Source: Escherichia phage 13a. From it: a stretch of 38,841 bases of DNA. The stretch lies in the sequence record NC_011045.1. One strand, given 5' to 3'. How positions within the stretch are numbered: position 1 is the stretch's first letter; every line of letters begins with the position of its first letter. The translations under genes and the position numbers were made by a program. Shown piece after piece: positions 29,059 through 38,181 of this stretch. The notes beneath the pieces were generated by a model, which did no database searches, was not told where the DNA came from, and saw only the letters and a program-made list of their open reading frames with translations.

Positions 29059-32000
29059 ATGGATAAGTACGATAAGAACGTACCAAGTGATTATGATGGT
29101 CTGTTCCAAAAGGCGGCTGATGCCAACGGGGTCTCTTATGACCTTTTACGTAAAGTCGCTTGGACAGAATCACGATTTGTGCCTACAGCAAAATCTAAGA
29201 CTGGACCATTAGGCATGATGCAGTTTACCAAGGCAACCGCTAAGGCCCTCGGTCTGCGAGTTACCGATGGTCCAGATGACGACCGACTTAACCCTGAGTT
29301 AGCCATCAATGCTGCCGCTAAGCACCTTGCAGGTCTGGTGGGTAAATTCGATGGTGACGAACTCAAAGCTGCCCTTGCGTACAACCAAGGCGAGGGCCGC
29401 TTGGGTAATCAACAACTTGAGGCGTACTCTAAGGGAGACTTCGCATCCATCTCTGAGGAAGGACGGAACTATATGCGTAACCTTCTGGATGTTGCTAAGT
29501 CACCTATGGCTGGACAGTTGGAAACTTTTGGTGGCATAACCCCAAAGGGTAAAGGTATTCCGGCTGAGGTAGGATTGGCTGGAATTGGTCACAGTCAGAA
29601 AGTAACACAGGAACTTCCTGAGTCAACAAGTTTTGACGTTAAGGGTATAGAACAGGAGGCTCCGGCGAAACCATTCGCCAAGGACTTTTGGGAGACCCAC
29701 GGAGAAACACTTGACGAGTACAACAGTCGTTCAACCTTCTTCGGATTCAAAAATGCTGCCGAAGCTGAACTCTCCAACTCAGTCGCTGGGATGGCTTTCC
29801 GTGCTGGTCGTCTCGATAATGGTTTTGATGTGTTTAAAGACACCATTACGCCGACTCGCTGGAACTCTCACATCTGGACTCCAGAAGAGTTAGAGAAGAT
29901 TCGAACCGAGGTTAAGAACCCTGCGTATATCAATGTGGTAACTGGTGGTTCCCCTGAGAATCTTGACGACCTCATTAAGCTGGCTAACGATAACTTTGAG
30001 AATGACTCCCGCGCTGCCGAAGCTGGCCTAGGTGCCAAACTGAGTGCTGGTATTATTGGTGCTGGTGTGGACCCACTTAGCTATGTTCCTATGGTCGGTG
30101 TCACTGGTAAGGGCTTTAAGTTAATCAATAAGGCTCTTGTAGTTGGTGCCGAAAGTGCTGCTCTGAACATTGCATCCGAAGGTCTCCGTACCTCCGTAGC
30201 TGGTGGTGACGCAGACTATGCTGGTGCGGCCTTAGGTGGCTTTTTGTTTGGCGCTGGTATGTCTGCAATCAGTGACGCTGTAGCTGCTGGTCTGAAACGT
30301 AGCAAACCAGAAGCTGAGTTCGATAATGAGTTCATTGGTCCTATGATGCGGATGGAAGCACGTGAGACAGCGCGTAACGCCAACTCTGCGGACCTCTCTC
30401 GGATGAACACTGAGAACATGAAGTTTGAAGGTGAACATAATGGTGTCCCTTATGAGGACTTACCAACAGAGAGGGGTGCCGTGGTGTTACATGATGGCTC
30501 CGTTCTAAGTGCAAGCAACCCAATCAACCCTAAGACTCTAAAAGAGTTCTCCGAGGTTGACCCTGAGAAGGCCGCACGAGGAATCAAACTTGCTGGGTTC
30601 ACCGATATTGGCTTGAAGACCTTGGGGTCTGACGATGCTGACATCCGTAGAGTGGCTATTGACCTCGTTCGCTCTCCTACTGGTATGCAGTCTGGTGCCT
30701 CAGGTAAGTTTGGTGCAACAGCCTCGGACATCCATGAGAGACTTCACGGTACTGACCAGCGTACTTACAATGACTTGTACAAAGCAATGTCTGACGCTAT
30801 GAAAGACCCTGAGTTCTCTACTGGCGGCGCTAAGATGTCCCGTGAAGAAGCTCGCTACACTATCTACCGTAGAGCGGCACTAGCTATTGAGCGTCCAGAA
30901 CTACAGAAGGCACTCACTCCGTCTGAGAGAATCGTTATGGACATCATTAAGCGTCACTTTGACACCAAGCGTGAACTCATGGAGAATCCCGCAATCTTCG
31001 GTAATACGAAGGCTGTGAGTATCTTCCCTGAGAGTCGTCATAAGGGAACCTACGTTCCTCACGTATACGACCGTCACGCCAAGGCGCTGATGATTCAACG
31101 CTACGGTGTCGAAGGCTTACAGGAAGGTATTGCTCGTTCGTGGATGAACAGCTACGTCTCCAGACCTGATGTCAAGGCCAGAGTCGATGAGATGCTTAAG
31201 GAAGTACATGGGGTGAAGGAAGTAACGCCAGAGATGGTAGAGAAGTACGCTATGGATAAGGCTTACGGTATCTCCCACTCAGACCAGTTCACCAACAGTT
31301 CCATAATCGAAGAGAACATTGAGGGCTTAGTAGGTATCGAGAACAACTCATTCCTTGAGGCACGTAACTTGTTTGATTCGGACCTATCCATCACTATGCC
31401 AGACGGACAGCAATTCTCAGTGAACGACCTAAGGGACTTCGATATGTTCCGCATCATGCCAGCGTATGACCGCCGCGTCAACGGTGACATCGCCATCATG
31501 GGGTCTACTGGTAAAACCACTAAGGAACTTAAGGATGAGATTTTGGCTCTCAAAGCGAAAGCTGAGGGGGACGGTAAGAAGACTGGCGAGGTACATGCTC
31601 TCATGGATACCGTTAAGATTCTTACTGGTCGTGCTAGACGTAATCAGGACACTGTGTGGGAAACCTCACTGCGTTCCATCAATGACCTAGGGTTCTTCGC
31701 TAAGAACGCCTATATGGGTGCTCAGAACATTACGGAGATTGCTGGGATGATTGTCACTGGTAACGTTCGTGCTCTCAGTCACGGTATCCCAATTCTGCGT
31801 GATACACTGTACAAGTCTAAACCAGTTTCCGCTAAGGAACTCAAGGAACTCCATGCGTCTCTGTTCGGGAAGGAGGTTGACCAGTTGATTCGCCCTAAAC
31901 GTGCTGACATTGTGCAGCGCCTAAGGGAAGCAACTGATACCGGACCTGCCGTGGCGAACATCGTAGGGACCTTGAAGTACTCCACACAGGAACTGGCTGC

Positions 32001-33015
32001 TCGCTCTCCGTGGACTAAGCTACTGAACGGAACCACTAACTACCTTCTGGATGCTGCGCGTCAAGGTATGCTTGGGGATGTTATTAGTGCCACCCTAACA
32101 GGTAAGACTACCCGCTGGGAGAAAGAAGGCTTCCTTCGTGGTGCCTCCGTAACTCCTGAGCAGATGGCTGGCATCAAGTCTCTCATCAAGGAACATATGG
32201 TACGCGGTGAGGACGGGAAGTTTACCGTTAAGGACAAGCAAGCGTTCTCTATGGACCCACGGGCTATGGACTTATGGCGACTGGCTGACAAGGTAGCTGA
32301 TGAGGCAATGCTGCGCCCACATAAGGTGTCCTTACAGGATTCCCATGCGTTCGGAGCATTGGGTAAGATGGTAATGCAGTTTAAGTCTTTCACTATCAAG
32401 TCACTTAACTCTAAGTTCCTGCGAACCTTCTATGATGGATACAAGAACAACCGAGCGATTGACGCTGCGATGAGTATCGTCACCTCTATGGGTCTCGCTG
32501 GTGGTTTCTATGCTATGGCTGTACACGTCAAAGCATACGCTCTGCCTAAGGAGAAACGTAAGGAGTACTTGGAGCGTGCACTGGACCCAACCATGATTGC
32601 CCACGCTGCGTTATCTCGTAGTTCTCACTTGGGTGCTCCTTTGGCTATGGCTGACCTAGTTGGTGGTGCCTTAGGGTTCGAGTCCTCCAAGATGGCTCGC
32701 TCTACGATTCTACCTAAGGATACCACGAAGGAACGTGACCCAAACAAACCGTACACCTCTAGAGAGGTAATGGGAGCTATGGGTTCAAACCTTCTGGAAC
32801 AGATGCCTTCTGCTGGCTTTGTGGCTAACGTTGGGGCTACCTTAATGAATGCTGCTGGCGTGGTCAACTCACCTAATAAAGCAACCGAGCAGGACTTCAT
32901 GACTGGTCTTATGAACTCCACAAAAGAGTTAGTACCTAACGACCCATTGACTCAACAGCTTGTGTTGAAGATTTATGAGGCGAACGGTGTTAACTTGAGG
33001 GAGCGTAGGAAATAA
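29059..33015 (+). CDS. 16: Internal virion protein D gp16 (1318 aa) with N-terminal lytic transglycosylase domain
   Basis: 1318 aa as T7 gp16; N-terminal LLRKVAWTESRFVPTAKSKTGPLGMMQF (SLT-like catalytic motif). Confidence 0.97.
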   Translation: MDKYDKNVPSDYDGLFQKAADANGVSYDLLRKVAWTESRFVPTAKSKTGPLGMMQFTKATAKALGLRVTDGPDDDRLNPELAINAAAKHLAGLVGKFDGDELKAALAYNQGEGRLGNQQLEAYSKGDFASISEEGRNYMRNLLDVAKSPMAGQLETFGGITPKGKGIPAEVGLAGIGHSQKVTQELPESTSFDVKGIEQEAPAKPFAKDFWETHGETLDEYNSRSTFFGFKNAAEAELSNSVAGMAFRAGRLDNGFDVFKDTITPTRWNSHIWTPEELEKIRTEVKNPAYINVVTGGSPENLDDLIKLANDNFENDSRAAEAGLGAKLSAGIIGAGVDPLSYVPMVGVTGKGFKLINKALVVGAESAALNIASEGLRTSVAGGDADYAGAALGGFLFGAGMSAISDAVAAGLKRSKPEAEFDNEFIGPMMRMEARETARNANSADLSRMNTENMKFEGEHNGVPYEDLPTERGAVVLHDGSVLSASNPINPKTLKEFSEVDPEKAARGIKLAGFTDIGLKTLGSDDADIRRVAIDLVRSPTGMQSGASGKFGATASDIHERLHGTDQRTYNDLYKAMSDAMKDPEFSTGGAKMSREEARYTIYRRAALAIERPELQKALTPSERIVMDIIKRHFDTKRELMENPAIFGNTKAVSIFPESRHKGTYVPHVYDRHAKALMIQRYGVEGLQEGIARSWMNSYVSRPDVKARVDEMLKEVHGVKEVTPEMVEKYAMDKAYGISHSDQFTNSSIIEENIEGLVGIENNSFLEARNLFDSDLSITMPDGQQFSVNDLRDFDMFRIMPAYDRRVNGDIAIMGSTGKTTKELKDEILALKAKAEGDGKKTGEVHALMDTVKILTGRARRNQDTVWETSLRSINDLGFFAKNAYMGAQNITEIAGMIVTGNVRALSHGIPILRDTLYKSKPVSAKELKELHASLFGKEVDQLIRPKRADIVQRLREATDTGPAVANIVGTLKYSTQELAARSPWTKLLNGTTNYLLDAARQGMLGDVISATLTGKTTRWEKEGFLRGASVTPEQMAGIKSLIKEHMVRGEDGKFTVKDKQAFSMDPRAMDLWRLADKVADEAMLRPHKVSLQDSHAFGALGKMVMQFKSFTIKSLNSKFLRTFYDGYKNNRAIDAAMSIVTSMGLAGGFYAMAVHVKAYALPKEKRKEYLERALDPTMIAHAALSRSSHLGAPLAMADLVGGALGFESSKMARSTILPKDTTKERDPNKPYTSREVMGAMGSNLLEQMPSAGFVANVGATLMNAAGVVNSPNKATEQDFMTGLMNSTKELVPNDPLTQQLVLKIYEANGVNLRERRK

Positions 33016-33035
33016 TACGACTCACTATAGGGAGA
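33013..33035 (+). promoter_or_regulatory. T7-type promoter phi17
   Basis: taatacgactcactatagggaga overlapping gene 16 stop. Confidence 0.9.
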
Positions 33036-33087: not shown

Positions 33088-34764
33088 ATGGCTAACGTAA
33101 TTAAAACCGTTTTGACTTACCAGTTAGATGGCTCCAATAGTGATTTTAATATTCCGTTTGAGTATCTAGCCCGTAAGTTCGTAGCGGTAACTCTTATTGG
33201 CGTAGACCGCAAGGTCCTTACGATTAATACAGACTACCGTTTTGCTACTCGCACCACTATCTCTCTTACAAAGGCTTGGGGTCCAGCCGATGGCTACACG
33301 ACCATCGAGTTACGTCGAGTAACATCCACGACCGACAGATTGGTTGACTTTACGGACGGCTCAATCCTCCGTGCGTATGACCTTAACGTAGCTCAGATTC
33401 AAACGATTCACGTAGCGGAAGAGGCCCGTGACCTCACTGCGGATACTATCGGTGTCAATAACGATGGTCACTTGGATGCTCGTGGTCGTCGAATTGTGAA
33501 CCTAGCGAACGCCGTGGATGACCGCGATGCTGTTCCGCTTGGTCAACTAAAGACCATGAACCAGAACTCATGGCAAGCACGTAATGAAGCCTTACAGTTC
33601 CGTAATGAGGCTGAGACTTTCAGAAACCAAGCGGAGGGCTTTAAGAATGAGTCCGGTACTAACGCTACGAACACAAAGCAGTGGCGAGATGAGACCAAGG
33701 GTTTCCGAGACGAAGCCGAGCAGTTCAAGAATACGGCTGGTCAATACGATACATCTGCTGGGAACTCTGCTTCCGCTGCGCATCAATCTGAGGTAAACGC
33801 TGAGAACTCTGCCACAGCATCCGCTAACTCTGCTCATTTGGCAGAACAGCAAGCAGACCGTGCGGAACGTGAGGCAGACAAGCTGGGGAATTTTAATGGA
33901 CTGGCTGGTGCAATTGATAAGGTAGATGGAACCAATGTGTACTGGAAGGGAAATATTCACGCTAACGGGCGCCTTTACATTACCACAAACGGTTTTGACT
34001 GTGGTCAGTATCAACAGTTCTTTGGTGGTGACACTAATCGTTATTCTGTCATGGAGTGGGGAGATGATAACGGATGGCTGATGTATGTTCAACGTAGAGA
34101 GTGGACAACAGCGATAGGCGGTAACATCCAGTTAGTAGTAAACGGACAGATCATCACCCAAGGCGGAGCCATGACTGGTCAGCTAAAATTGCAGAATGGG
34201 CATGTTCTTCAATTAGAGTCCGCATCCGACAAGGCGCACTATATTCTATCTAAAGATGGTAACAGGAATAACTGGTACATTGGTAGAGGGTCAGATAACA
34301 ACAATGACTGTACCTTCCACTCCTATGTACATGGTACGACCTTAACACTCAAGCAGGACTATGCAGTAGTTAACAAACACTTCCACGTAGGTCAGGCCGT
34401 TGTGTCCACTGATGGTAATATTCAAGGTACTAAGTGGGGAGGTAAGTGGCTTGATGTTTACCTAAACGATACTTACGTTAAGAAGACAATGGCTTGGACT
34501 CAAGTATGGGCTGCTGATAGTGGTAAGTACCTGCCAGGAGGTTCTCAGACTGATACTCTCCCACAGGACTTACGATTCCGCAACATATGGATTAGGACCA
34601 GAAACAACTATTGGAACTTCTTCCGAACTGGTCCTGATGGTATCTACTTCCTTTCAGCCGAGGGCGGTTGGCTAAAATTCCAGATACACTCTAATGGCAG
34701 GGTATTTAAGAACATATCGGATAGAGATGCGCCTCCAACAGCAATAGCCGTAGAGGACGTGTAA
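33088..34764 (+). CDS. 17: Tail fiber protein gp17 (558 aa)
   Basis: MANVIKTVLTYQLDGSNSDFNIPFEYLARKFVAVTLIGVDRKVL... conserved N-terminus; C-terminal tip region differs from T7 as recalled. Confidence 0.97.
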   Translation: MANVIKTVLTYQLDGSNSDFNIPFEYLARKFVAVTLIGVDRKVLTINTDYRFATRTTISLTKAWGPADGYTTIELRRVTSTTDRLVDFTDGSILRAYDLNVAQIQTIHVAEEARDLTADTIGVNNDGHLDARGRRIVNLANAVDDRDAVPLGQLKTMNQNSWQARNEALQFRNEAETFRNQAEGFKNESGTNATNTKQWRDETKGFRDEAEQFKNTAGQYDTSAGNSASAAHQSEVNAENSATASANSAHLAEQQADRAEREADKLGNFNGLAGAIDKVDGTNVYWKGNIHANGRLYITTNGFDCGQYQQFFGGDTNRYSVMEWGDDNGWLMYVQRREWTTAIGGNIQLVVNGQIITQGGAMTGQLKLQNGHVLQLESASDKAHYILSKDGNRNNWYIGRGSDNNNDCTFHSYVHGTTLTLKQDYAVVNKHFHVGQAVVSTDGNIQGTKWGGKWLDVYLNDTYVKKTMAWTQVWAADSGKYLPGGSQTDTLPQDLRFRNIWIRTRNNYWNFFRTGPDGIYFLSAEGGWLKFQIHSNGRVFKNISDRDAPPTAIAVEDV

Positions 34765-34822
34765 TAAGCATCAAAGGAACTACTTTAAGTCCACGGATGG
34801 ACTATCACACTAAGGAGGACAC

Positions 34823-35026
34823 ATGTTGTCATTGGATTTTAACAACGAACTAATTAAAGCGGCACCGATTGTAGGTACAGGTGTTGCGGATGTTAGTGCA
34901 AGACTGTTCTTCGGGCTAAGCCTGAATGAATGGTTCTATGTGGCTGCTATCGCCTACACAGTGGTTCAGATTGGTGCCAAGGTAGTCGATAAGATTATTG
35001 ATTGGAAGAAAGCAACTAAGGAGTAA
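34823..35026 (+). CDS. 17.5: Holin gp17.5 (67 aa)
   Basis: MLSLDFNNELIKAAPIVGTGVADVSARLFFGLSLNEWFYVAAIAYTVVQIGAKVVDKIIDWKKATKE; TM segment. Confidence 0.93.
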   Translation: MLSLDFNNELIKAAPIVGTGVADVSARLFFGLSLNEWFYVAAIAYTVVQIGAKVVDKIIDWKKATKE

Positions 35027-35030
35027 CTTT

Positions 35031-35300
35031 ATGGAAGTCGATAAGAGCCTGATAGCTTTGTTAGAGATGTTGGATACAGCGATGGCCCAACGTATGCTGG
35101 CAGACCTAGCTAACGACGAGAAGCGCACCCCACAACTCTATAATGCTATCAACAAACTGTTAGACCGTCACAAGTTCCAAATCGGTAAGTTGCAGCCGGA
35201 TGTTCACATCTTGGGTGGCCTTGCTGGTGCTCTTGAAGAGTACAAAGAGAAAGTAGGTGACAACGGTCTTACGGATGACGATATTTACACGTTACAGTGA
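35031..35300 (+). CDS. 18: Terminase small subunit gp18 (89 aa)
   Basis: ATG with taaggag SD; MEVDKSLIALLEMLDTAMAQRMLADLANDEKRTPQLYNAINKL... Confidence 0.93.
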   Translation: MEVDKSLIALLEMLDTAMAQRMLADLANDEKRTPQLYNAINKLLDRHKFQIGKLQPDVHILGGLAGALEEYKEKVGDNGLTDDDIYTLQ

Positions 35301-35350
35301 TATACTCAAGGCCACTACCTATAGTGGTCTTTATGGATGTCATTGTCTAC
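35301..35350 (+). promoter_or_regulatory. RNase III site R18.5-like
   Basis: atactcaaggccactacctatagtggtctttatggatgtcatt. Confidence 0.5.
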
Positions 35351-35394
35351 ACGAGATGCTCCTACGTGAAATCTGAAATTTAATGGGAGGCATT

Positions 35395-35838
35395 ATGCTA
35401 CAATTTTTGCGTAAACTCGTCCCTTGGGTTCTCGCTGGGATGCTATTCGGATGGGGATGGCACCTTGGGTCAGACTCAATGGACACCAAATGGAAACAGG
35501 AGGTACAGAATGAGTACGTTAAGAGAGTTGAGGCTACGGCGAGCACTCAAAGAGCAATCAATGAAATATCGGCTAAGTATCAAGAAGACCTTGCCGCGCT
35601 GGAAGGGAGCACTGATAGGATTATTTCTGATTTGCGTAGCGACAATAAGCGGCTGCGTGTCAGAGTCAAAACTACCGGAACCTCCGATGGTCAGTGTGGA
35701 TTCGAGCCTGATGGTCGAGCCGAACTTGACGACCGAGATGCTAAGCGTATTCTCGCAGTGACCCAGAAGGGTGACGCATGGATTCGTGCGTTACAGGATA
35801 CTATTCGTGAACTGCAACGTAAGCAGGAAATCAAGTAA
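35395..35838 (+). CDS. 18.5: Rz-like i-spanin gp18.5 (147 aa)
   Basis: MLQFLRKLVPWVLAGMLFGWGWHLGSDS... N-terminal TM, T7 gp18.5-like. Confidence 0.9.
   Translation: MLQFLRKLVPWVLAGMLFGWGWHLGSDSMDTKWKQEVQNEYVKRVEATASTQRAINEISAKYQEDLAALEGSTDRIISDLRSDNKRLRVRVKTTGTSDGQCGFEPDGRAELDDRDAKRILAVTQKGDAWIRALQDTIRELQRKQEIK
35510..35761 (+). CDS. 18.7: Rz1-like o-spanin gp18.7 (83 aa), embedded in +1 frame of 18.5
   Basis: MSTLRELRLRRALKEQSMKYRLSIKKTLPRWKGALIGLFLICVATISGC... lipobox-like ISGC; T7 gp18.7-like. Confidence 0.8.
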   Translation: MSTLRELRLRRALKEQSMKYRLSIKKTLPRWKGALIGLFLICVATISGCVSESKLPEPPMVSVDSSLMVEPNLTTEMLSVFSQ

Positions 35839-35847
35839 GGAGGCAAT

Positions 35848-38158: not shown

Positions 38159-38181
38159 TAATTCGACTCACTATAGGGAGA
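38159..38181 (+). promoter_or_regulatory. T7-type promoter phiOR
   Basis: taattcgactcactatagggaga. Confidence 0.85.

Follow-up and report, generated by a model that had tools for sequence, protein, structure and literature searches.

The existence of T7-type and T3-type tip alleles of the tail fibre, and the role of these alleles in host range, are textbook knowledge for T7-like phages. Gene 17 of Escherichia phage 13a raises the question to which of these types its fibre tip belongs, how a tip unlike that of T7 came to be joined to a T7-like fibre, and whether it alters the hosts that can be infected. The window analysed is the whole 38,841-nucleotide stretch of 13a DNA (NC_011045.1). The phage is a T7-like coliphage of the genus Teseptimavirus, with about 94% nucleotide identity to T7 across 90% of the first 25 kb, and its gene 17 occupies the position typical of the T7 group, downstream of gene 16, preceded by a phage-RNAP promoter and followed by the holin gene 17.5. 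The following features define this region.

29059-33015: gene 16 open reading frame, upstream of gene 17.
33013..33035, plus strand: T7-type class III promoter phi17, matching TAATACGACTCACTATAGGGAGA at 23/23 positions and placed as the annotated phi17 of T7.
33088..34764, plus strand: gene 17, a single open reading frame for the tail fibre protein gp17 of 558 aa.
34450..34761, plus strand: helix/linker and tip, residues 455-558, the receptor-binding module, assigned by identity to tips of the T3/T7 group and by the 4a0t alignment.
34823..35026, plus strand: gene 17.5, class II holin (Pfam PF10746, E 6e-37), 99-100% identical to T3 in nucleotide sequence and lying within the T3-type cassette described below.
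35031..35300, plus strand: gene 18, small terminase subunit (Pfam PF11123, E 3e-16), with the right junction of the cassette near its 3' end.

By exact-sequence cluster look-up, gp17 proved identical to the tail fibre protein recorded for Escherichia phage 13a (ACF15928.1/YP_002003979.1). Pfam matches were obtained with PF03906 (residues 1-162, E 1e-72), PF20744 (residues 371-463, E 9e-38) and PF12604 (residues 489-545, E 9e-8). The first of these is the N-terminal tail-attachment domain (Phage_T7_tail), in which 145/149 residues are identical to T7. The other two indicate that a pyramid (trimerisation) domain precedes a beta-sandwich tip, the order seen in PDB 4A0T, and so does a match to 4a0t_A at E 1e-98 over residues 368-557, in which the alignment of the tip extends to 4a0t residue 553. 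The match to T7 gp17 in PDB 7boz was at E = 0. The domain architecture, the phi17 promoter and the core and salt-bridge residues listed for T7 gp17 (NP_042005.1; 4A0T/4A0U, 7BOZ) are all common to both phages. From the 90% overall identity to the T7 protein, solved both by cryo-EM and by crystallography, gp17 of 13a would be a homotrimer that binds LPS, with six fibres per virion. Apart from gene 17 itself, a search of either strand of 34400-34764 for hidden features gave only a 51-aa alternative-frame open reading frame (34520-34675) and promoter and terminator matches at chance level.

The initial annotation held that about 460 N-terminal residues of gp17 match T7 closely and that the tip differs. 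Both statements were borne out by alignment with the PDB 7boz and 4a0t sequences and with NC_001604. Up to residue 454 the protein is identical to T7 at 439/454 positions (96.7%), against 416/454 for T3; in residues 455-558 the identity to T7 drops to 62/104, with a 5-residue insertion after T7 A478. The tip peptide quoted in that annotation corresponds to residues 454-558 and starts at nucleotide 34447; the start of 34400 given for it lies 47 nt upstream in the same gene. Besides this identity and the 5-residue indel, the HI loop carries DRDAP in place of DSRSV of T7, and the tip is accordingly not the T7-type allele of the 553-aa gp17.

We then compared the tip with those of other phages of this group. 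Over the same 104 residues, 100 are identical in AH67C600_Q5, 98 in PDP351P2, 97 in T3 and 95 in phiA1122. The tip is colinear, without gaps, with those of T3, phiA1122 and AH67C600_Q5, all with a BC loop longer than that of T7 by 5 residues. Identity to T3 is 93% at the amino acid level, and 96.2% at the nucleotide level over 34400-34764. T3 gp17 (NP_523342.1) is likewise of 558 aa, its BC loop is equal in length, its FG loop is identical and it shares DRDAP in the HI loop; its tip differs from that of 13a at seven sites (T3 to 13a: A458V, A477D, S480K, M482L, G483P, K503R and A544S), and the part of 13a gp17 upstream of residue 440 is of T7 type, not of T3 type. The closest tips on record (97.8% nucleotide identity) are those of AH67C600_Q5 (UAW07008.1) and PDP351P2, which have in common with 13a the BC-loop variant AADSG(K/R)(Y/F)(L/M)PGG, V458 and S440. 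PDP351P2 also shares with 13a the T7-like pyramid domain, while the N-terminal and shaft parts of AH67C600_Q5 (417/454) and PDP351P2 (432/454) are more diverged from 13a. Among the six phages compared, R503 of 13a is shared solely with PDP351P2, and S544 solely with phiA1122. A tip of the 558-aa form is carried by the Teseptimavirus genomes phiA1122, YpP-R, YpP-Y, YpsP-G, vB_YpYeO9, AH67C600_Q5 and PDP351P2. In a scan of IMG/VR, the matches were T3, one T3-like contig, phiA1122 and T7, and the 13a-type BC loop was absent among them. A collection of 5.8 billion proteins, the word index of which evidently serves the tail-fibre family poorly, gave no match for the 105-aa tip, and for the 188-aa C-terminal fragment nothing beyond the 4A0T construct and a single metagenomic fragment of 132 aa, the index being poorly suited here as well. 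As judged from sequence, the 13a tip is the already known T3/phiA1122-type allele and not a new variant.

For the origin of this combination, we counted informative sites, that is, sites where T7 and T3 differ, as T7-type or T3-type along the 13a sequence. Three segments were distinguished.

33088..34404, plus strand: T7-type part of gene 17, codons 1-439, comprising the tail-attachment domain together with the shaft and the greater part of the pyramid domain (T7-type to T3-type sites, 92:21).
34405..34445, plus strand: crossover interval, codons 440-453 (S-TDGNIQGTKWGGK), between the last T7-type site at 34404 and the first T3-type site at 34446.
34446..35213, plus strand: T3/phiA1122-type cassette of about 0.8 kb, as judged by informative sites, reaching from the gp17 tip across the intergenic region and gene 17.5 into gene 18, the larger part of which it includes.

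Within the cassette the counts are 1:92 for tip codons 453-558, 0:44 for the intergenic region and gene 17.5, and 1:30 for the 5' part of gene 18. To the right, the sites are mixed after 35231 (14:15), and gene 19 is of T7 type again (250:44). Gene 18 is of T3 type to about 35213 and T7-type sites return from 35288, the right-hand junction being diffuse (35213-35653). In sliding windows, 13a and T7 are 99-100% identical in DNA at 34188-34388 but only 53-75% identical at 34438-34738, and the cassette as a whole shows 92-100% identity to T3 versus 53-91% to T7. The switch from T7-type to T3-type within gene 17 gave a maximum chi-square of 185, a value reached by 0/200 permutations. Synonymous divergence (pS) over codons 1-440 is 0.090 to T7 and 0.235 to T3; in the tip, pS to T3 goes down to 0.044, a value that fits recent shared ancestry of the tips rather than convergence. 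These sites show gp17 of 13a as a natural mosaic, in which a T7-type body is joined to a helix/linker and tip of the 558-aa T3/phiA1122 type. The difference of the tip from T7 is very probably a recombination cassette of roughly 0.8 kb and not local divergence.

A block of 40 bp (34406-34445) is identical in T7, T3, AH67C600_Q5, PDP351P2 and 13a, and the Ser codon change at position 34405 next to it is common to 13a, AH67C600_Q5 and PDP351P2. The junction lies within this block shared by both lineages and is very probably a homologous crossover. Gene 17.5 and the larger part of gene 18 are carried on the same exchanged segment.

This point of exchange coincides precisely with the conserved hinge that joins the pyramid domain to the tip domain.

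An exchange of similar extent is known from the laboratory. In the T3/7 hybrid of Lin et al. (2012, PMC3276506), homologous recombination between short stretches of identity, with one crossover inside gene 17 and another inside gene 18.5, exchanged the distal portion of gene 17 together with genes 17.5 and 18 and some of gene 18.5, and both adsorption and host range were altered by the exchange (PMC3276506). The hybrid differs from 13a in its reversed polarity, with a T7 segment in a T3 backbone, and in its left crossover, located at codon 167 versus codons 440-453 in 13a. The region of the right-hand limit of the 13a cassette (gene 18 to 18.5) is that of the laboratory hybrid.

The direction and the date of transfer can only be inferred, and the exception in the group may be T7. 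If the 558-aa tip were the ancestral common allele of the T7 group, T7 would be the recombinant with an unusual tip, and 13a would have received no T3 tip at all. Such a view would agree with the occurrence of the 558-aa tip in several Teseptimavirus genomes, and with the 97-100% nucleotide identity of PDP351P2 to 13a over 34038-34900, from which the junction may predate 13a; T3, moreover, has a non-functional T7 promoter upstream of its gene 17, indicating a T7-like origin of that region. Against it, the tract of low divergence from T3 and phiA1122 (pS at the value given above) has sequence closer to T7 to its left and to its right, a pattern typical of an insert taken up by 13a or its lineage, and we consider a recombinant origin of T7 rather unlikely. 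The anatomy of the 13a fibre and its functional consequence would be unchanged under either history.

We also examined where the tip departs from T7 and from T3. Loop limits were taken from DSSP on an AlphaFold2 model together with anchor residues of Huss 2021, for the BC loop G476 and G479, and are approximate. The monomer model (residues 371-558, 3-sequence alignment) had a mean pLDDT of 50, with the pyramid domain unfolded and the tip at about 73, a poor result as expected when an interdigitated trimer is modelled as a monomer. The best Foldseek matches of this low-confidence model were 4A0U and 4A0T, with a TM-score of 0.43 to 4A0T that reflects the bad N-terminal half. The model was used for the limits of strands and loops only, and no claim on surface or interface was drawn from it. 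Four outward loops were delimited.

34513..34548, plus strand: BC loop, residues ~476-487, ADSGKYLPGGSQ, 5 residues longer than in T7.
34600..34611, plus strand: DE loop, residues ~505-508, RNNY, differing from T7 at 2/4 positions.
34654..34668, plus strand: FG loop, residues ~523-527, SAEGG, differing from T7 at 3/5 positions and identical to T3.
34714..34734, plus strand: HI loop, residues ~543-549, ISDRDAP, differing from T7 at 5/7 positions.

The BC loop differs from T7 at 10/12 positions and from T3 at 4/12 (D477, K480, L482 and P483). In the DE loop, T7 N501 is retained as N506, and the adjoining R503 is unlike the K of both T3 and T7. T7 D520 of the FG loop is replaced by E525. In the HI loop, S541-R542-S543-V544 of T7, of which R542 is the 'hook', are replaced by R546-D547-A548-P549, and the single difference from T3, A544S, is common to phiA1122. 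In T3, whose tip loops are host-range regions, E525G in the FG loop and D547G in the HI loop are host-range mutations (Yehl 2019). The 11 core and 5 salt-bridge residues listed for T7 in Huss 2021 are kept without exception, as are 3/4 of the intolerant glycines, the fourth, G476 of T7, being A476 in 13a. The fold-determining residues are all conserved, and the changes fall on outward loops and the surface.

The proposal that the tip differs from T7 in the receptor-contacting loops held in part. Differences were enriched in the outward loops BC, DE, FG and HI, with 20/28 positions changed versus 22/76 elsewhere (Fisher p = 2e-4, with loop limits approximate), but over half of the differences lie outside these loops, including 7/15 residues of the helix/linker before the tip. 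Relative to T3, the BC loop has 6 non-synonymous and 0 synonymous differences, which are small counts. The near-wholly non-synonymous changes versus T3, chiefly in the BC loop, are consistent with continued selection for receptor fit.

Effects of this fibre on host range have been published. When T7 is given the gp17 of 13a, either whole or as the C-terminal region, it acquires the ability to form plaques on E. coli ECOR16, a strain infected by T3 and not by T7 (Ando et al. 2015, bioRxiv 10.1101/020891). The different host range proposed in the initial annotation is thereby supported; of the different specificity proposed with it, the change in host range stands by the published swap, but there is no private divergence from T7, the tip being the T3/phiA1122-type allele gained via recombination. 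In the parallel T3/T7 constructs the swap junction lies at about residue 150, and the T3 construct carries about 410 C-terminal residues (Ando et al. 2015, bioRxiv 10.1101/020891). The published C-terminal swap went beyond the tip alone, and about 11 differences from T7 in the shaft and pyramid moved along with it. T7 with the 13a C-terminal region plates on K-12 strains BW25113 and MG1655 like T7, whereas T3-type chimeras do not; T7 with the whole 13a gp17 does not infect BW25113 or MG1655 but infects ECOR16 (Ando et al. 2015). The difference between the whole-gp17 and C-terminal chimeras on K-12 indicates that host range is not set by the tip alone, and the T7-like plating of the C-terminal chimera on K-12 indicates that a plain T3 specificity does not account for this fibre.

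In the proposed mechanism, the tip trimer would contact core sugars of rough LPS via the outward loops BC, DE, FG and HI, and a swap of the tip would change the E. coli LPS cores available for adsorption. That the tip alone causes the ECOR16 effect, and which of the loops act, we can only infer. The tip difference might instead be neutral in nature, the alleles being interchangeable on the rough LPS of laboratory E. coli that 13a, T3 and T7 would all use. All three phages indeed grow on E. coli B, and the K-12 plating of the C-terminal chimera would agree with such neutrality. The same chimera, however, gained ECOR16, which is closed to T7; T3-type and T7-type fibres differ by >10^5 in K-12 plating efficiency (Ando et al. 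2015); adsorption of T3 is poorer than that of T7 on several strains (Lin et al. 2012, PMC3276506); and loop mutations in T3 and T7 tips alter the range of infectable LPS mutants (Yehl 2019; Huss 2021). Neutrality of the tip is thus very improbable.

It is possible, though doubtful, that through its seven differences from T3 the 13a tip has a specificity of neither parent, with a dual range for K-12-type (T7) and ECOR16-type (T3) cores, the loop positions being under diversifying selection in a small natural sub-lineage of 13a, AH67C600_Q5 and PDP351P2.

That a tip of T7 type diverged in place without recombination, strong positive selection for a new receptor having driven point mutations and a small insertion, might be read from the concentration of non-synonymous changes in the outward loops, the high pN/pS of the tip relative to the rest of gene 17 and the fast adaptation of T7 tips through loop substitutions (Huss 2021), but it is hardly credible and was rejected as effectively refuted, because the abrupt switch hits synonymous sites too, with low identity to T7 and high identity to T3 in tip DNA, all but one of the 93 informative tip sites are of T3 type, synonymous divergence of the tip from T3 is so small, and the T3-type tract extends into the intergenic region and genes 17.5 and 18, which are unrelated to receptor binding.

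The finding is real but ordinary, as the 13a fibre, its tip type and its host-range effect are already known; the 13a tail fibre has been publicly recorded since 2008, and in 2015 it was synthesised and its effect tested with T7 as the chassis. Tail-fibre modularity in nature is cleanly illustrated by gp17 of 13a. The BC-loop sub-allele of 13a, AH67C600_Q5 and PDP351P2 could serve as a natural variant in host-range engineering of T3 and T7. Yehl et al. 2019 used the T3 gp17 tip as their 'phagebody' scaffold, and if the dual range of the 13a tip is true, this tip would be a natural counterpart of the broadened 'phagebody' engineered by Yehl et al.

The interval 34400-34764 was found to be the 3' end of a single long open reading frame of 558 amino acids (33088..34764, plus strand), and the peptide cited in the initial annotation corresponds to gp17 residues 454-558, starting at nucleotide 34447. 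This reading frame is gene 17, encoding the tail fibre, because gene 16 and a phi17-type promoter are located upstream, the holin-terminase-gene 19 order is located downstream, and its product matches the tail-fibre domains of Pfam.

Gene 17 and its surroundings
29059-33015: gene 16 open reading frame, preceding gene 17
33013-33035: T7 class III promoter, perfect match, upstream of gene 17
34823-35026: holin of the T7 family, downstream of gene 17
35031-35300: small terminase subunit, after the holin and followed by the 18.5/18.7 pair and then gene 19
gp17 residues 1-162: T7 tail-fibre N-terminal domain (Pfam, E 1e-72)
gp17 residues 371-463: trimerisation ('pyramid') region (Pfam, E 9e-38)
gp17 residues 489-545: C-terminal tip domain (Pfam, E 9e-8)

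Databases list this exact 558-residue sequence under the name 'tail fiber protein [Escherichia phage 13a]' (ACF15928.1, YP_002003979.1, UniRef100_B3VD74). The feature is real, and the protein of this phage has already been described, the tip allele is known and the host-range effect is published. Across the window, T7-type promoter matches number ten in all, against none expected by chance; one promoter-like site with a single mismatch (TAATTCGACTCACTATAGGGAGA) is located near the right end (38159-38181, plus strand), where phiOR is expected.

The proposal that the tip differs from T7 while the fibre body is conserved was borne out by alignment with T7 gp17 (PDB 7boz/4a0t sequences and NC_001604). 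Up to residue 454, gp17 is closer to T7 (439 of 454 residues identical) than to T3 (416/454), whereas only 62 of the 104 residues at 455-558 are identical to T7, with five additional residues after T7 A478. DNA identity to T7 decreased from 99-100% in windows 34188-34388 to 53-75% in 34438-34738.

By a scan over the sites differing between T7 and T3, with the window scored by which parent it matched, the last T7-type stretch was found to end at 34404 and the T3-type stretch to begin at 34446. The left boundary was placed between these positions by a maximum chi-square scan (statistic 185; reached by 0/200 permutations). Directly upstream of the helix joining the pyramid domain to the tip, 40 bases (34406-34445, encoding TDGNIQGTKWGGK) are identical in the window, T7, T3 and two related phages with the closest tips, AH67C600_Q5 and the Teseptimavirus PDP351P2; a homologous crossover in this stretch would leave no trace. 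The T3-type tract extends past the end of gene 17.

T7-type and T3-type sites (T7-type : T3-type)
Gene 17, codons 1-439: 92 : 21
Gene 17 tip, codons 453-558: 1 : 92
Intergenic region and gene 17.5: 0 : 44
Gene 18, 5' two-thirds: 1 : 30
35231-35847: 14 : 15
Gene 19: 250 : 44

As judged from these counts, the site pattern shows a cassette of ~0.8 kb (about 34446-35213), of recent ancestry shared with the T3/phiA1122 group, in a T7-like backbone; across 90% of the first 25 kb, nucleotide identity to T7 is ~94%. The recombinant could be T7 and not 13a, or the junction could be older than 13a, as its presence also in PDP351P2 suggests; the polarity of exchange, either way, leaves anatomy and consequence unchanged. 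Divergence of the tip in place from a T7-type tip is excluded, since the T3-type tract runs beyond gene 17 and synonymous divergence from T3 drops from 0.235 (codons 1-440) to 0.044 (tip), which rules out convergence as well. In the laboratory T3/7 hybrid, the exchange took place at an 8-bp identity and spanned gene 17 codon 167 to gene 18.5 (Lin et al. 2012, PMC3276506); the 13a cassette is the reciprocal of that in the hybrid, and the segment is therefore a proven unit of exchange.

Gene 16 (30088-33015) was also patchy: at 30988-31088, for instance, PDP351P2 is the closer match (98%, against 87-89% for T7), whereas 31988-32238 is 99-100% identical to T7. This patchwork suggests that recombination left other small tracts beyond the tail fibre as well. 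The segment 37645-38106 (plus strand) has no counterpart at the same place in T7, T3 and phiA1122 but is present in AH67C600_Q5 and vB_YpYeO9, and the vB_YpYeO9 record annotates it as an HNH endonuclease. Insertion of a mobile homing endonuclease is the probable origin of the segment.

The last 365 nucleotides of gene 17 are 96.2% identical to T3 and 74.6% to T7, 95-96% to the Yersinia pestis phages phiA1122, YpP-Y, YpP-R and R, and 97.8% to AH67C600_Q5 and PDP351P2; the best matches stayed below 98% because the phage collection searched did not include 13a itself. Over residues 455-558, identity without gaps was 97/104 for T3, 95/104 for phiA1122, 100/104 for AH67C600_Q5 and 98/104 for PDP351P2. 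On this alignment, the 13a tip is therefore the known 558-residue T3/phiA1122-type allele on a T7-type fibre body, and no private variant. The BC-loop variant AADSGKYLPGG is found, with one or two changes, in AH67C600_Q5 and PDP351P2 only among the searchable records. Ser440, which borders the crossover interval, arises from G-to-T at 34405 (codon 440; Ala in both T7 and T3) and is common to 13a, AH67C600_Q5 and PDP351P2, apparently marking the three as a single sub-lineage for the gene 17 junction. NCBI lists several T3-like gp17 proteins, some full-length and some partial, under Xylella fastidiosa subsp. multiplex (protein cluster of 13a gp17; IMG/VR contig of 5837 bp). Their tips are almost identical to T3, and the proteins seem to stem from contaminating T3-type phage in those assemblies and not from Xylella itself.

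As no solved T3-type tip was detected among the PDB sequence matches to gp17, the differences were mapped onto the T7 tip. An AlphaFold2 monomer model of residues 371-558 was poor overall (pLDDT 50, ~73 in the tip; best PDB matches 4A0U/4A0T); its use was limited to placing strands and loops, with cross-checking against the T7 residues assigned to outward and inward loops (Huss et al. 2021, PMC8043750). The T7 hydrophobic core is kept at 11/11 positions (W474, I495, W496, I497, Y515, W523, L524, F526, I528, F535, I548), as are the five residues that form salt bridges in the inward loops (D489, R491, R493, R508, D512) and 3/4 substitution-intolerant glycines, the sole change being G476 to Ala.

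Tip positions differing from T7
BC loop: 10/12
DE loop: 2/4
FG loop: 3/5
HI loop: 5/7
Outward loops, all: 20/28
Rest of tip: 22/76
Helix/linker 455-469 (counted within the rest): 7/15

Differences are thus enriched in the receptor-contacting outward loops (Fisher p = 2e-4), in agreement with the initial annotation, but the pattern is not exclusive to them. T7 S541-R542-S543-V544, including the R542 'hook', is replaced by R546-D547-A548-P549, and T7 D520 by E525.

The tip differs from T3 at seven residues only: V458; D477, K480, L482 and P483 in the BC loop; R503 at the DE-loop edge; and S544 in the HI loop. Five of the seven lie in outward loops (5/28 versus 2/76, p = 0.015). Within the BC loop, six nucleotide differences are non-synonymous and none synonymous, and pN/pS against T3 is 0.85 for the whole tip versus 0.18 for codons 1-440; these differences point to possible diversifying selection, the counts being small. 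The same four loops (BC, DE, FG, HI) are the host-range-determining regions of T3, of which BC and HI were productive, and natural host-range mutations of T3 include E525G and D547G (Yehl et al. 2019, bioRxiv 10.1101/699090).

That the tip difference is functionally neutral is contradicted by published plating data. Ando et al. (2015, bioRxiv 10.1101/020891) made 13a gene 17 synthetically and constructed T7 phages with either the complete 13a gp17 or only the C-terminal region of it; in their parallel T3/T7 constructs, the point of exchange was at about residue 150. On E. coli ECOR16, plaques were formed by T3 and both 13a chimeras but not by T7. On K-12 strains BW25113 and MG1655, plating was cut >10^5 by T3-type fibres; the 13a C-terminal-region chimera plates like T7 on both, whereas the whole-gp17 chimera does not. 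Experiment thus supports the proposed change of host range in the case of 13a gp17, with a swapped piece larger than the tip, and by these platings the specificity of 13a is not simply that of T3. Residues 1-149 (33088-33534) carry four changes from T7 in the tail-attachment domain, R18S, V33A, M107I and T118A; these may affect infectivity, because the whole-gp17 chimera fails on K-12 while the C-terminal-region chimera forms plaques.

T3 reportedly uses an LPS outer-core glucose, lost in waaG mutants (Yehl et al. 2019). By analogy with T7 and T3, the three tip domains at the end of each of the six fibres would make reversible contact with LPS core sugars by means of the outward BC, DE, FG and HI loops, and the longer BC loop and recharged HI loop would shift acceptance among truncated or substituted cores. 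With the exchange point at the conserved hinge, pyramid and shaft would stay intact, and hence the fit to a T7-type tail. The comparisons altogether show 13a gp17 as an apparent recombinant with its receptor-binding tip in the T3/phiA1122 allele class, and the chimeras of Ando et al. (2015) show that its C-terminal region alters T7 host range.
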